This document shows positions 11,028-28,247 of a stretch of 32,000 nucleotides of DNA, in pieces. Under the pieces are notes generated by a model, which did not search any database, was not told where the DNA came from, and saw only the letters and a program-made list of their open reading frames with translations. The stretch spans positions 540,001-572,000 of the forward strand of contig BA000021.3 of the NCBI GenBank assembly GCA_000008885.1, read 5' to 3'. The translations under genes and the position numbers were made by a program. Positions within the stretch are counted from its first letter, which is position 1, and each line of letters opens with the position of its first letter. The DNA comes from Wigglesworthia glossinidia endosymbiont of Glossina brevipalpis (GTDB taxonomy: Bacteria; Pseudomonadota; Gammaproteobacteria; Enterobacterales; Enterobacteriaceae).

Positions 11028-11291
11028 TTATTTGCATAAAATTTTTGGAATTATATTAATAAATTTTTTATTTTTCTTTTTTTTAAAAAAAACTATTCCT
11101 GATTTCAATGCATATAAGCTATAATCTTTTCCGCAACCCACATTTTTACCTGGATGAAATTTTGTACCTCTTTGTCTAACTATTATATTTCCTGGGTATG
11201 CTTTTTGTCCTCCAAAAAGTTTTACTCCAAGCCTTTTTCCAATAGAGTCTCTTCCATTTCTTGTAGATCCTCCGGCTTTTTTATGTGCCAT
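11028..11291 (-). CDS. rpmA: 50S ribosomal protein L27
   Basis: [67 protein letters not shown]... matches L27. The canonical N-terminus MAHKKAGGS starts at the ATG at 11291, so the 10-codon extension in the track ORF (to 11321) is rejected. Confidence 0.95.
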
Positions 11292-11304
11292 ATTATTTCC
11301 TTTG

Positions 11305-11616
11305 TTAACAACAAATATCAATTATTTTTATATTGGTTAATTTTTGTCTATAACCTGTTATTTTTTTAAAATGCTTTCTTCTAGAGAACTTAACAATACT
11401 AATTTTTTTGCCATTAATATGTTTTTTAATTGTTGCAATTATTCTACTATTTTTTATAAAAGGTTGCCCAAATATAATTTTTTCATCATTAAATAATGCC
11501 ATAATTTTTTTTATCTCTATAGTGCTTCCTATATCTCCAGATATTTTATTTAAACAAACAACGCTTCCTGATTTTGCTTTATATTGAACACCATTTATTT
11601 TAAAAATTGCATACAT
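11305..11616 (-). CDS. rplU: 50S ribosomal protein L21
   Basis: 103 aa. [20 protein letters not shown]...[18 protein letters not shown] is typical L21. It lies immediately upstream of rpmA. Confidence 0.95.
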
Positions 11617-14699: not shown

Positions 14700-17600
14700 T
14701 TAAAAATCAAAACGGTAGATTACATCTACCGCTTGATTTTTATCTGAAATTGCTTCCAAATATATTTTGTTGGTTAATTTATAATTTATTTTTAACATAA
14801 AAGAATTTCTATCAAATGTTTTTATTCCATATTTTATCTTTAATTTTTTAAGAAAATTTCCACTAACTATAATTCTAGATTGATTTCCGAATCCTTGAGC
14901 CTTTAAATAAAGGTTTTTAATTCCTACTTTTTGTCCTATTTTTTGTATTAAATATTCGCTTTTTATTACGCTAATTCCTATTATCATAGAAGTTAATATA
15001 TTTTCTCCTTCAAAACTAGAAAAAGAAATTTTATTTTTATTTATTAAGTAAGAAAATTTTTCTTTATCATATTGTTCTGGATCAGAGAATATATATAATT
15101 TAGAATTGTTAGCAATCCCAAAAATTTTAATTCCTGAAATTGTATGATTCATGTTTGATAGTTCATATTTAACAGCTTCTATATCTATATATGGTTTATC
15201 TATAGGGCCAGAAAATATTAATTGACCTTTTCTTACATATAATTCTTGTCCGTAAATATGTATAATTCCTGAAATTATTTTAATTTGTCCATTTAATTTA
15301 GAGCGATTTTTATCCGTGATTAATTTTAAATTTCCTTGCAATTTAGCTTTTAATCCAAGAACATTAATATATACATTATCATCAATAATTATTGATATAT
15401 TTGAATTTATGCTAATATTATTAGTTTCTTTTTTGTTTGAAAAAATTAATGTATTTATATTATCAAGTATAATCTCATCTTTAGATATTATAGAATAATT
15501 ATTAGAAATTTTTTCATTTTCTATAAAAATATTAGAAACATTTATATTTCCTGATATATATAATTTTTTTTGATTTATTTCTAAATATATATTTGGAGAG
15601 ATTTTTATATGAATAAAATCTAATATAATAAATTTTAATTTTTCTCCAGAAATTTTAATTAAAATTTTACAATTTTTTTCGTTTCTCCATTCAGAGAATC
15701 CATTTATCTTTAATTTTTCTTTAAAACCATTAATCGAGCTATCTATAAAAAAATATTTTCCTAAAAATTTTATATTAATAAAAAAATTTTTAAAGTTTGT
15801 TTTTATTACATTATTGCTTAAATTAAAAAAATTAATATTTAATTTTCCATTAATATTTATTCCTTGGAAATTATTAAAGTATAATTTTGAATTTATTTCT
15901 CCATCAACATCAAAATCATATAAAAGAATTTTAAATAATTTTAATGGAGTTTTTTTTGTATATATATATCCATTTATATTTTTGTTAATTACATTAAAGC
16001 ATCCATAAAAATAATCATTCTTATAAATATTTAATATCCATTTAAAATAAAAGTATGATTTTTCATATAAAATATTAATATTAATATAATTAAAATTTTT
16101 TTCAAAAATTTTATTTAAATAAATTTGTTTTATTTTTATGTTTTTCCCGGAAAAAAAAATATTTATTTTTGGAAAAAAATTGTTTAAACTCCAAAGTATT
16201 TCTATTTTACTTTGTATTATTCCAGAAATGACATTCCTTTTGGGAAGAAGTGGTTGAATTCTTGATAAATCAAAATTTTTTATATTAATTACTACGTATT
16301 TATTTTCTTTTTTTATATAATTATCAAAAATATTTTCTAAAAAATTTTTTTTATTATTAAAATAATTTTTATCATAAATTTTATTTTCATATATTAAAAA
16401 ATCAATTAAAAAATTTTTATTTGTTTTTTTATTAAAAAATTCAAATATTTGAATCCATCCATTATATTTGTTATTTTTAATATCGTACTTTAAGTATAAA
16501 TCAATATTTTTATTATATAGTTCATTGTTAGATGAAATAATAAATTCATTTTGTATTTTGTTTTTCCAATTATTAAAATAAAATTTATTTATTAATAATT
16601 TATTTAATAAAAAAATTTTTTCTATTTTTATTTTTAAATAATTAAATTGAAATAATTCATTTATATTTAATTGAATATTAGAATATTTTATTTTTATATC
16701 TTTTATAACAAGATCTTTTATTTTAAATAATAAATTTGCATTTAATTCATTATTTTTTGTATATATAAAGATCTTTCCGTTTATTTTTCCGTAAAAATTT
16801 TTAGAAAGTAAATTAAAATCAAAATAAATATTTGAGTTGTTTTTATTTTCTTGAAAAATAAAAAAATTTTTTTCAAAATATAAAAAAAATTTAGAAATAT
16901 AAAAAAATTTTTTTATATTTTTTTTTAAAATTAAATTTATTTTAAACAACTCGTACGATTTATTATAAATTGATTCAACATCTAATTTTATTAATTCATT
17001 TGTTTTATTGATTTTTCCTTGAAAAAAAAAGCAATTAGAAGTCCTATTTTTATATACTTCTAACCCTAAAAATTTTATTTTTTTTGATATTGTATTTATT
17101 TTAAAAATATAAGAAGAATTTTTATAAAATAATTTTCCGTAAATTTTTAAATTTACTTCTAATATAATTGTTTGATAATTTAAATTTGTTAAATTTTTTT
17201 TTTTATATTTAATTTATTATGAAAATTTTTAAAAAAAAATAATTTATATAAAGATTCTAATTGATTATTAAAAATTAAAGGATATTTTATATCTTGTTTT
17301 TTTTTATTTTTTTTAAAAAAACTGACTTTATCAAAAACAAAAATATTTTCCCACTTTTTTATATTTTCATATAAATTTTCCAAATTATAAATTTTTATTG
17401 ATGCTTGATATAAATCTATATATTTAATATTAACTTCATTTTTATTAAATATTAATTTTGTATTAATTCTTTCAAAAAATAAAGATAAATCTTTATAGTA
17501 AATTTTAACTTTTTGCATAAAAATATTTTTTATCATTAATTTAACTAATTTAGTAATAAATACATTATTATTAAAATCAAATACATAGTTAGAATTAATT

Positions 17601-17908
17601 TTTATTGTTATTTCTTCAAAAGAAGATAATCCTGAAAAAGATTTTTCATAATCAAGCAAATTTTTATTAAAATTAAATTGATACTCTTTAATAAAGATAT
17701 CAAAATTTGAATTTTTATATTTAATATCATTAATAGTTAATTTTTCTAAATCTATATTAATAGAACCTATTGTAAAATCATTAATTTTAAAATTGATTTT
17801 GTTTTCTGATATATATGTACAATAAAAAAAATGAAAAAATAGAAGACAAGTGTTAAATATCAAATTAATAAAAAATATTTTTAAATAAATTTTGCAAGAA
17901 AAGCTCAC
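14700..17908 (-). pseudogene. tamB: tamB (ytfN) translocation-and-assembly-module inner-membrane subunit. As written it is split into two ORFs by a frame change inside an A11 tract, so it is either a pseudogene or a slippage-dependent CDS.
   Basis: The upstream ORF 17908..17189 has a GTG start overlapping the tamA stop (GTGA) and an N-terminal signal-anchor (IFFINLIFNTCLLFFHFF). The downstream frame is open from 17213 to 14700 and ends in a DUF490-like C-terminus (...KINYKLTNKIYLEAISDKNQAVDVIYRFDF). The two frames overlap only over 17189..17213. It lies immediately downstream of tamA, as in E. coli tamA-tamB. Confidence 0.75.
17194..17204 (-). repeat. Sense-strand poly(A) tract, 11 nt, at the tamB frame junction
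   Basis: The plus strand is T x11 at 17194-17204. The upstream frame reads ATA AAA AAA AAA ATT TAA. The downstream frame reads AAA AAA AAA AAT TTA ACA ... Confidence 0.95.
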
Positions 17909-21557: not shown

Positions 21558-22261
21558 TTAAATAAATATTTTTTTAATTTTTTTTACATAGTTAAATATT
21601 ATATCTATTACTTCTTCAGTTCTTAATAATGTAGAATCAATTATAAAAGATTGTGAATCTGGAATTAAAGGAGAAATAGATCTATTTATATCTAATTCGT
21701 CTCTTTTTTTCATATCATACATTATATTATTAAAATTAACATTAAAGCCTTTTTTCTGCAACTGTATAGTTCTGCGTATTGCTCTTTCTTTTATAGAAGC
21801 ATGAAGAAATATTTTTATTTCAGCCTCAGGAAATACAACAGATCCCATATCTCTTCCTTCTGCTATAAGCCCTGGAATTTTATAAAAATTTTTTTGAATT
21901 TTAATTAAAAATTTTCTTAAAATAGGAAACAGAGAAATTTTTGAAGCAATACAAACTATTTTTTCATCTAAAATTTCTAAAGTAACGTCTTTTCCATTAA
22001 GTATGGTATGCAATTTATTTTTTTTAATTTCAAATTTTACATTTAAACACTTGCAAAGTAATATTAAGTTCTTTTCATTAAATTTTAATTTACTATACTT
22101 ACTCCATAGCAAACTCAAAGATCTATATATAGCTCCTGAGTTTAAAATATTCCATTTAAAATTTTTTGCAATTATTTTTGAAATAGTGCTTTTCCCTGAC
22201 CCACTAGGTCCATCTATAGTTATTATATTTTTTTTTTTAATATTTTTATATTATTTATCAT
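21558..22261 (-). CDS. cmk: Cytidylate kinase. The P-loop N-terminus is in frame but has no ATG/GTG/TTG start. The nearest ATG (22261) is in the -1 frame, upstream of an A11 tract.
   Basis: The in-frame reading from 22250 is YKNIKKKNIITIDGPSGSGKSTISKIIAKNFKWNILNSGAIYRSLSLLWS... This is the Cmk P-loop ITIDGPSGSGKST, followed by GLIAEGRDMGSVVFPEAEIKIFLHASIKERAIRR. The track ORF (22118, TTG) lacks the P-loop and cannot be the true start. Alternative starts are ATT at 22241, or ATG at 22261 with one extra A in the tract. Confidence 0.85.
22228..22238 (-). repeat. Sense-strand poly(A) tract, 11 nt, between the only upstream ATG and the cmk P-loop
   Basis: The plus strand is T x11 at 22228-22238, counted directly. 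Confidence 0.95.
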
Positions 22262-22334
22262 ATATAATATTTTTAAACAATATTTGCTTGTAAAGTATAT
22301 AATAATAAAAAATTATTTATATATAATAATATGC

Positions 22335-24306: not shown

Positions 24307-25626
24307 TTAAAAATTTTTATTTTTATATTTTTTTATAATTTTTAAAATATATCCAATTAATAATATTGTAAAAGTTGGTAAAACCCATCTCATGTTAAAA
24401 TCTGAAAAAGGCAATATATTGATAAATATAGGTATATATTTAGAGTAATAAGTTAAGTTAATTGAATCTAAAAACCCTATAAAAAAACTTATTAATACAG
24501 CTAAAATTGCTAAAAAATTAATTTTATTATTGTCTAATATTAAATTAGATATTATTAGCGTAATACAAGGAGGATAAATAATAGATAATACTGGAAGAGC
24601 AATAAACAATAATTGATTTAAGTTAAAATTAGAAATTAAGCTAGAAATTATGCTAATAAAAATAACTAAATAAATATTTTTTATATTAAAATATTGTTTT
24701 AAAAATTCTGCACAAGAACAAGTCAAACTTACTGCTGTTGAAAAACATGTTATAAAAATAGCAATTGAAAAGAATATATGCCCAAAATCTCCAAACATAT
24801 ATTTAATATATTTATTGAGTAAAATTAATCCATCTTCATGGTCAGGAAAAATAAATTTACTAATTATTCCAACTTTAAATAAAAGTATATATATTATAGA
24901 CAAAATAAAAGAAACAATTGTTCCAGTAATTATAATATATTTAGTAATTAGTTTTTTATCTTTTACTCCGCATAAATTAATAGATTTAACAATCATTAAT
25001 CCAAATACCATAGATCCAAGTATATCCATAGTCAAATACCCATGTAACAAACCATAAAAAAATTGATAAAAATTTGAAAAAATTTTTTCTGGATATATGC
25101 TTGAAATATATTTATCTGAAATAAATATAGAAGAAACGCATAAAATAATTAAAATTGTAATTTTAATAGGATTTAAAATTAAACCAATTATTTTTAATAA
25201 ATATTTTGGATTATAAGAAACAACAGATACAAAAAGAAAATAAAAAAAGTTATAAAAAATGTTTAAAGCAACTCCATTTCCAAAGAATGGAGCAAATACT
25301 ATTTCAAAAGATGCTATAGAAGTTCTAGGTATTGCAAATAAAGGACCTACCATAATGTGGCATAATGCAAATAAAATAAAACTTAATTTTTTACCAATTA
25401 TTTGACCTAGTATATTTTTTTTGACTTTTTTATCTTTTGATAAAGAAAATATAACTAGCATCGGAAAAATAACCGAAGTTATTAAAAATCCTATAATTGA
25501 TAAAAAAACATTGTTTGATTTTATAGAAACTATAATAGGAATTACTATATTGCTTATTCCTAAAAAAAATCCTAAAAGTAAAAAGCTTATTGATATAATA
25601 TTTTTATAACTTATTCTTTTAAACAT
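24307..25626 (-). CDS. brnQ: Branched-chain amino acid transport system II carrier BrnQ (LIVCS family)
   Basis: 439 aa polytopic membrane protein, the same length as E. coli BrnQ. Conserved blocks include GFFLGISNIVIP and MVGPLFAIPRTSIASFEIVFAPFFG (E. coli [25 protein letters not shown]). Confidence 0.88.
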   Translation of the reverse strand: MFKRISYKNIISISFLLLGFFLGISNIVIPIIVSIKSNNVFLSIIGFLITSVIFPMLVIFSLSKDKKVKKNILGQIIGKKLSFILFALCHIMVGPLFAIPRTSIASFEIVFAPFFGNGVALNIFYNFFYFLFVSVVSYNPKYLLKIIGLILNPIKITILIILCVSSIFISDKYISSIYPEKIFSNFYQFFYGLLHGYLTMDILGSMVFGLMIVKSINLCGVKDKKLITKYIIITGTIVSFILSIIYILLFKVGIISKFIFPDHEDGLILLNKYIKYMFGDFGHIFFSIAIFITCFSTAVSLTCSCAEFLKQYFNIKNIYLVIFISIISSLISNFNLNQLLFIALPVLSIIYPPCITLIISNLILDNNKINFLAILAVLISFFIGFLDSINLTYYSKYIPIFINILPFSDFNMRWVLPTFTILLIGYILKIIKKYKNKNF

Positions 25627-27752: not shown

Positions 27753-28247
27753 TTAAAAAAATGTTAACAAAAAAGATATTAATATACAAATAAAAACTAA
27801 AAAATAAAAAATATATAATTTATTATTTATTAATTGATACATAACATTATTTAATATATTTCCAATAATACCACCAAAATATATTCCACTGTAATTATCA
27901 TCAAACAAGAAAGATAAAAAACAACAACAAAATAAAATTAATAAAAACATATGAATTATTTTATATGATAATTTTATTAAGTTAATTTTTTTTTTTGTAT
28001 AAAAACAACAATCTAAAAAAAAAGATAAAAAAAATAAAGGAATAAAATAAGTCATTTTCCCAATCATAATAAACAATGTTCCTGATATATATGCTCCGTA
28101 CTTACCTCCAAAATTAAATATATAGTCGTTAGATGATGTTTTTAATAAATTTGGATCATCTTCATTAAAAGATATAATAGAAATTAATAAATACAAAGTT
28201 ATTATGAAAACAAGAAATACTTTTTTTTTATTATATTCATTTAACAT
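27753..28247 (-). CDS. ftsK: FtsK N-terminal membrane (division-septum targeting) domain only. The linker and C-terminal DNA-translocase motor are absent.
   Basis: 164 aa aligning with E. coli FtsK residues of about 20-185. Paired blocks are ISFNEDDPNLL / LSFNPSDPSW, NFGGKYGAYISGTLFIMIGKMTYFIP / [26 protein letters not shown], and FGGIIGNIL / SGGVIGSLL. It sits at the syntenic position (trxB-[lrp]-ftsK-lolA). Only 77 bp separate its stop from the lolA start. Confidence 0.75.
   Translation of the reverse strand: MLNEYNKKKVFLVFIITLYLLISIISFNEDDPNLLKTSSNDYIFNFGGKYGAYISGTLFIMIGKMTYFIPLFFLSFFLDCCFYTKKKINLIKLSYKIIHMFLLILFCCCFLSFLFDDNYSGIYFGGIIGNILNNVMYQLINNKLYIFYFLVFICILISFLLTFF

Follow-up and report, generated by a model that had tools for sequence, protein, structure and literature searches.

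A two-nucleotide poly(A) expansion separates the start codon of cmk from its kinase body in the Wigglesworthia symbiont of Glossina brevipalpis, a lesion that slippage may bridge

The cmk locus and its 5′ end

The DNA analysed here – a window of 32,000 nucleotides with a GC content of 21%, whose coordinates are used throughout – belongs to the 697,724-bp genome of Wigglesworthia glossinidia, which lives as an obligate symbiont in the tsetse fly Glossina brevipalpis. The minus strand carries, in order, serC (23420-22335), cmk, rpsA (21490-19826), tamA (19644-17905) and tamB. The body of cmk extends from an Asn codon at the 3′ edge of a poly(A) tract to the stop codon (21558-22229, minus strand); the frame that contains it, opened at 22250, scores 216.1 bits against TIGR00017 (cutoff 135.55), covering positions 2-216 of the 217 in that profile, and 209.6 bits against PF02224. 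The P-loop found by translation, GPSGSGKS (22188-22211, minus strand), aligns with GPSGAGKG of E. coli Cmk, and the CMP-binding motifs NSGAIYR, GRDMG and RDxxDxNR are all present and colinear with those of the solved E. coli Cmk 1KDO, residues 7-221 of which align colinearly with the window protein. Judged by profile, motifs and alignment, cmk is a real, full-length (d)CMP kinase gene.

The public record gives a different picture. The top protein match for the window cmk is the annotated cmk BAC24631, a model of 186 amino acids that begins at a TTG (22116-22118, minus strand) and does not include the P-loop. This model is certainly wrong. An AGGAG lies 5′ of the TTG (22118-22140), formed by the codons for S-G-A, a conserved stretch of Cmk, and is the probable reason why both the GenBank and the Logan annotations settled on the 186-residue form. 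A TTG start also occurs elsewhere in the window, in the rpmA reading frame (11028-11321), where it overlaps rplU; the L27 profile begins at residue 11 of that frame, and the real rpmA start is probably the ATG at 11291.

The difficulty with cmk is at its beginning. A TAA (22251-22253, minus strand) closes the kinase frame upstream, and from there the frame reads TAT AAA AAT ATT AAA AAA AAA AAT ATA ATA ACT ATA GAT GGA…. The initial annotation had claimed that the frame is open from 22250, that it encodes the P-loop, and that between the TAA and the P-loop there is no ATG, GTG or TTG. All of the minus-strand coordinates check, and on re-reading the first of these three codons in the frame is indeed the TTG at 22118, past the P-loop. 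What the frame does contain ahead of the P-loop are near-cognate codons: an ATT at 22241 and ATA codons at 22226, 22223 and 22217. By itself the missing start is unremarkable, a stretch of 44 codons lacking a canonical start being expected with P about 0.18 from composition alone; it becomes meaningful because comparison with sister genomes reveals a 2-nt insertion in the tract.

An ATG is present just upstream, in another frame (22259-22261, minus strand). It opens a 12-codon reading frame, MINNIKILKKKI followed by TAA (22223-22261, minus strand), which reads ATG ATA AAT AAT ATA AAA ATA TTA AAA AAA AAA ATA TAA, with its stop at 22225-22223 and a second TAA immediately after. A minus-strand reading agrees with the earlier description of this frame as one that runs through a sense-strand tract of eleven adenines (22228-22238, minus strand), which begins 23 nt past the ATG start codon and is the site of the expansion, and the proposed site of the slippage, discussed below. 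A single added adenine (A12) joins the ATG to cmk, as had been claimed, giving MINNIKILKKKNIITIDG… (equivalently MINNIKILKKKN…), a protein of 234 amino acids interrupted by no other stop. The peptide first proposed for this junction, with four consecutive lysines, does not stand: A12 encodes three, and four would need A15. Removal of two adenines (A9) likewise restores the frame, with 233 amino acids and again no other stop.

Origin of the frameshift

A first question is whether the tract length is real. Over 2.8-2.9 kb the window is matched colinearly by two Logan assemblies built from other read sets, SRR22299872 and SRR22299856. Both have A11, and each differs from the window at a single synonymous site, 22109. 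A11 is the true genomic length of the tract. A homopolymer sequencing error, listed among the alternatives in the initial annotation, is ruled out because two independent read-set assemblies, marked by their SNP, also have A11, and the genomic A12 that had been named as counting against a frameshift is, at assembly level, found in neither. There is a broader form of this reading, in which an in-frame allele (A12 or A9) is the true one, or a common one, and A11 reflects a miscalled homopolymer or a consensus over genome copies that differ. In its favour one can cite the age of the reference genome, which is from 2002, the polyploidy of endosymbionts and the hypermutability of long A-runs; against this stand the two SNP-bearing assemblies, both A11, although Logan contigs are consensus sequences in which minor tract-length variants are invisible. 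On balance we regard a miscall or a mixture of alleles as very improbable. The two contigs (22682-19770 and 22611-19813) start within serC, towards its 3′ end, and stop 13-56 nt past rpsA; such limits would suit contigs assembled from RNA-seq reads of a cmk-rpsA unit into which transcription continues from serC.

The nature of the lesion emerges from comparison with three sister lineages: one represented by contig L003, the G. morsitans symbiont (WGM, contig L005) and the lineage to which the MAG-1 genome belongs (contigs L004 and L006). All three encode full-length Cmk read in a single frame, with the N-termini MKRINTKIKKN-VITIDG (L003), MKRTNRKTKKN-VITIDG (WGM) and MIRINQNQKQN-IITIDG (L004/L006). 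The ATG at 22261 in the window aligns with the cmk start codons of L003, L004 and WGM, and in 4/4 sequences – the window and its three sisters – it is preceded by AATATTA-N2-3. From this ATG to the GAT of …IDG… there are 47 nt in the window and 45 nt in the sisters, and where the window has A11 the sisters have ATA AAA AAA AAT (A9, L003), ACC AAA AAA AAT (A8, WGM) or the interrupted CAA AAA CAA AAC (L004). The A12 product, at 234 aa, equals WGM Cmk in length. Read against these alignments, the cmk lesion is an insertion of 2 nt that lengthened an older A-run encoding lysine, because the sisters have 45 nt in place of 47 and an A8, A9 or interrupted run. The same alignments mark the ATG at 22261 as the true start inherited by cmk, whose first 11 codons have been severed from the kinase body; the 12-codon frame, which sits where the sister N-termini sit, is what remains of that leader. 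The comparison of sister 5′ ends that the initial annotation had called for thus placed the upstream ATG as orthologous to three sister starts and the parting of the frames at A11.

The frameshift is common only to near-identical isolates (1 SNP in 2.9 kb), the three sister lineages being in frame. Scans of genome contigs added nothing to this sample: the window Cmk retrieved no relatives, and a Cmk alignment retrieved just the Wigglesworthia MAG already included together with distant bacteria.

The surroundings of cmk have changed as well. In the sisters aroA lies between serC and cmk (L003 1672-2955, L004 1660-2940, L005 8670-9953), and tblastn finds no match to it in the window. Its loss has left a serC-cmk spacer of 73 nt (22262-22334, minus strand), of which just the ~30 nt adjoining cmk can still be aligned to the sisters, these being homologous to the sister aroA-cmk spacer. 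Gene content also differs at a second place in the window, where brnQ, encoding a branched-chain amino acid carrier of 439 aa, occupies 24307-25626; the G. morsitans symbiont has in its place a gene-less serS-ahpC spacer of 970 bp (L005 5722-6692), in which tblastn finds no remnant.

Integrity and expression of cmk

A critical issue is whether a gene that has lost its start codon in this way still makes a protein. One answer is that it does not, and that cmk is a recent pseudogene at the first step of erosion, producing no functional Cmk, with an open frame that has not yet had time to decay. The frameshift has, after all, cost the gene its only canonical start, the neighbourhood is eroding in this lineage – the adjacent aroA is deleted – and cmk is dispensable in E. 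coli, where knockouts are viable, so that loss is conceivable. The state of the gene argues otherwise. No further lesion occurs across 227 codons, at a GC content of 21% and in a genome where a random codon would be a stop ~10% of the time; from composition, 227 open codons would be expected with P about 5e-11, and the catalytic motifs are intact. Measured against WGM, dN/dS is 0.29 for cmk and 0.10-0.39 for its intact neighbours, and in a three-taxon decomposition the share of dN falling on the G. brevipalpis branch is 0.55 for cmk, 0.62 for serC and 0.59 for rpsA. On the affected lineage cmk has not accelerated relative to its neighbours, a result that could be uninformative if the frameshift is very recent, the samples within the lineage being so nearly identical that an old age for the frameshift is not demonstrable from them. 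The same argument from intactness and rate was applied in PMC3017870 to Blochmannia genes with single tract indels. Two genes in 32 kb (tamB, treated below, is the other) have a tract frameshift as their sole lesion, a pattern deemed potentially functional in Blochmannia; tamB can also be cited on the opposite side, with the same lesion and a high dN/dS of 0.69-0.80. Weighing these points together, we think it unlikely, though by no means negligible as a rival, that cmk is dead.

Our preferred account is the following. Replication slippage in the G. brevipalpis lineage would have added two bases to the 5′-proximal poly(A) run of cmk, most simply taking A9 to A11, and would thereby have put the ancestral ATG and the first 11 codons out of the kinase frame. 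On this account cmk is still needed and still made: ribosomes would initiate at the ancestral ATG (22261), and some expression events would switch to the kinase frame on A11. This could occur by two routes. RNA polymerase may slip on the tract and produce A12 (or A9) transcripts, which would be read through from the ancestral ATG; alternatively, the ribosome may slide back one base (-1) on the three AAA lysine codons. The initial annotation had considered only A12 transcripts, but a -1 ribosomal slide on A11 and an A12 at the level of the transcript give the same product. Either kind of slippage would yield MINNIKILKK(K)NIITIDGPSGSGKS…, a protein of 233-234 aa, the size of the sister proteins, and initiation at the ATT may contribute a small amount besides. 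We infer, from the arrangement of the sequence and from precedent, that slippage on A11 from the ancestral ATG, by RNA polymerase and/or by a -1 slide of the ribosome, is the main source of Cmk; we would put the probability at about 0.55, somewhat better than even.

Precedent is of two kinds. In endosymbionts, corrected transcripts at poly(A) runs amount to 12-50% in Buchnera and Blochmannia (PMC5009743), and full-length transcripts to about 30% at such tracts (PMC3017870). In E. coli, ribosomes slide robustly on K3/A11 and little on A9 or A10 (PMC4363877). For Wigglesworthia itself, Rio et al. 2012 raised transcriptional or translational rescue at homopolymer tracts as a possibility for those genes of the G. 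morsitans symbiont that carry frameshifts (PMC3280448). Against our account stands the inference of Baranov et al. 2005 that Wigglesworthia may not slip in transcription, A/T runs being equally common in coding and non-coding sequence (PMC1088944). A literature search returned no mention of the frameshifted cmk of the G. brevipalpis symbiont.

Slippage is not the only way in which a kinase with a P-loop could be made. Cmk may instead be initiated at the near-cognate ATT (22239-22241, minus strand), or at an ATA in the kinase frame, to give a 227-aa protein beginning MKKKNIITIDG…, in which case the ATG would be a relic or the start of a short upstream reading frame. A UniParc entry (UPI0005A512D0), an automated database model, is identical to the 227-aa ATT-start product. 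The product has the length of E. coli Cmk, and the ATT precedes position 2 of TIGR00017 by three residues. In E. coli, infC and pcnB demonstrably start at AUU, and many genes of the window are likewise without a Shine-Dalgarno match. AUU and AUA are, nonetheless, poor initiators, with an efficiency in E. coli only about 1-2% that of AUG (10.1101/063800), and the expected yield is about ten-fold below published slippage rates. The ATT is, moreover, not inherited: it is in frame only through the 2-nt insertion, and the sisters use an ATG 20 nt upstream. A canonical ATG in a conserved context also opens a reading frame that passes over the ATT, and ribosomes elongating along that frame would be expected to occlude it. 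We favour slippage because the ATG and its context are inherited and because published yields are ~10x those of near-cognate initiation, and favour it over the ATT in particular because the ATT owes its place in the frame to the shift itself and sits where ribosomes from the ATG would be translating. Near-cognate initiation as the main source of Cmk seems to us unlikely, though a serious rival.

The surroundings of the tract count against slippage. Folding revealed no stimulatory structure in the RNA near it (z = -0.81; a 5-bp hairpin ~17 nt downstream is all there is), and upstream of it there is no anti-SD pairing. The ATG at 22261 has no Shine-Dalgarno match, which is uninformative given that about half of the genes here are also without one. 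A promoter scan returned 16 sites, against 9.9±3.7 in shuffles; a leaderless mRNA, suggested by TTTACA-17-AATATT ending 5 nt before the ATG, was considered and dropped as unsupported.

Comparison with known systems helps to place cmk. Tamas et al. and Wernegreen et al. are said to have found, in 2008 and 2010 respectively, that frameshifted poly(A) genes of Buchnera and Blochmannia are rescued by transcriptional slippage, and Williams & Wernegreen 2010 belongs to the same body of work. The cmk gene shares with these cases an AT-rich, obligate insect endosymbiont as its host, a single indel in a sense poly(A) of ~10-11, a sequence that is otherwise intact and unaccelerated, and company, since a genome holds several genes of this kind (here cmk and tamB in 32 kb). 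By sequence criteria of the Tamas 2008 type it presents a lesion in an A/T run of at least about 9, no other lesion, an unaccelerated rate and a confirmed tract length. Two differences deserve emphasis. In Wigglesworthia slippage has been suggested and was once argued to be absent (PMC1088944), and the cmk lesion removes the start codon where the others truncate the protein, which opens a near-cognate route to rescue. On these features cmk appears to belong to the endosymbiont class of poly(A) frameshifts that are potentially rescued, by a mechanism established elsewhere and suggested in print for Wigglesworthia.

The parallel with ribosome sliding, as described by Koutmou et al. 2015, lies in the three AAA codons set in exactly 11 A's and in a -1 movement that leads into the kinase frame; in that work sliding is a cost, with truncated products, whereas in cmk it would be productive. 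With the -1 frameshift of E. coli dnaX the tract shares A AAA AAA, within TTA AAA AAA AAA ATA, the potential for tandem tRNA-Lys re-pairing and the direction of the shift, but it has neither the downstream stem-loop nor a Shine-Dalgarno-like stimulator upstream, and in the sisters it is not conserved. By these sequence features the cmk tract is not a programmed frameshift signal of the dnaX type, because stimulatory structure and Shine-Dalgarno element are both missing and the two-frame layout is absent in the sisters. As for the AUU starts of infC and pcnB, the likeness is an in-frame ATT at the expected N-terminus; the cmk ATT differs in being a frameshift by-product, without a recognisable ribosome-binding site or regulatory logic, and it is not conserved, all three sister cmk genes starting at the upstream ATG.

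tamB, other poly(A) tracts and wider implications

A second out-of-frame A11 occurs in tamB (17194-17204, minus strand), where frame comparison calls for the same correction. The gene (14700-17908) is split only at this tract, the N-terminal frame ending just past it and the C-terminal frame opening just ahead of it; one added adenine gives an ORF of 1069 codons with no other stop and a predicted junction peptide …LNIKKKNLTNLN…. The initial annotation was right that the shift has the same direction and size as in cmk, codon starts passing from 1 mod 3 to 2 mod 3 across the A11. WGM TamB, of 1077 aa, has no tract at that site. Exact-product look-ups in independent assemblies (tamA, ppa and the tamB N-fragment) returned no match, and the tamB A11 is known from the window alone. 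Its dN/dS against WGM, given above, is far above that of its neighbours, and tamB may be under relaxed selection or may be a fast-evolving gene.

The remaining A11 tracts of the window, six in number, are all in frame: they lie in thiL, dnaG, obgE, tamA, the ftsK remnant and an unnamed ORF. The tract in thiL (102-112) was examined as a third candidate frameshift and rejected, the frame reading straight through. The ftsK remnant is a 164-aa ORF (27753-28247) whose match to FtsK is confined to the N-terminal membrane portion, a truncated ftsK with its in-frame A11 at 27986-27996; Rio et al. 2012 (PMC3280448) describe ftsK as truncated in both Wigglesworthia genomes. A 267-aa ORF (1395-2198), with a good Shine-Dalgarno match and no NCBIfam match, has an in-frame A11 at 1458-1468. 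Across the 32 kb, A/T runs number 59 of length 8, 18 of length 9, three of length 10, eight of length 11 and none of 12 or more; of those of at least 10 nt, 11/11 are sense-strand poly(A) encoding KKK. The excess of runs of exactly 11, above which they stop abruptly, coincides with the published E. coli sliding threshold, a coincidence of uncertain significance in 32 kb only.

It is tempting to go further, and to suppose that cmk and tamB are expressed mainly by ribosome sliding on K3/A11 and not by slippage of RNA polymerase. We rate this bolder proposal as a long shot. Were it true, sliding would reconcile the published inference that transcriptional slippage has left no selective footprint in this genome with the retention of two genes that are otherwise intact and call for a -1 shift, the pile-up at 11 would mark a translational threshold, and these would be the first natural bacterial genes dependent on poly(A) ribosome sliding.

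Whatever the route, the cmk tract is distinctive in its position, downstream of the start codon but ahead of the P-loop, so that a polymerase slip, a ribosome slide and a near-cognate start give distinguishable N-termini. The predicted peptides are MINNIKILKK(K)NIITIDGPSGSGK for slippage, MKKKNIITIDGPSGSGK for the ATT start and the 12-mer MINNIKILKKKI for the unshifted leader. In annotation, cmk is better described as tract-frameshifted yet probably functional, and tamB likewise; counting such genes as present or not changes metabolic reconstructions of the tsetse symbiont. Together cmk and tamB offer a direct test of whether Wigglesworthia tolerates, or even exploits, poly(A) slippage, contrary to the genome survey of 2005.
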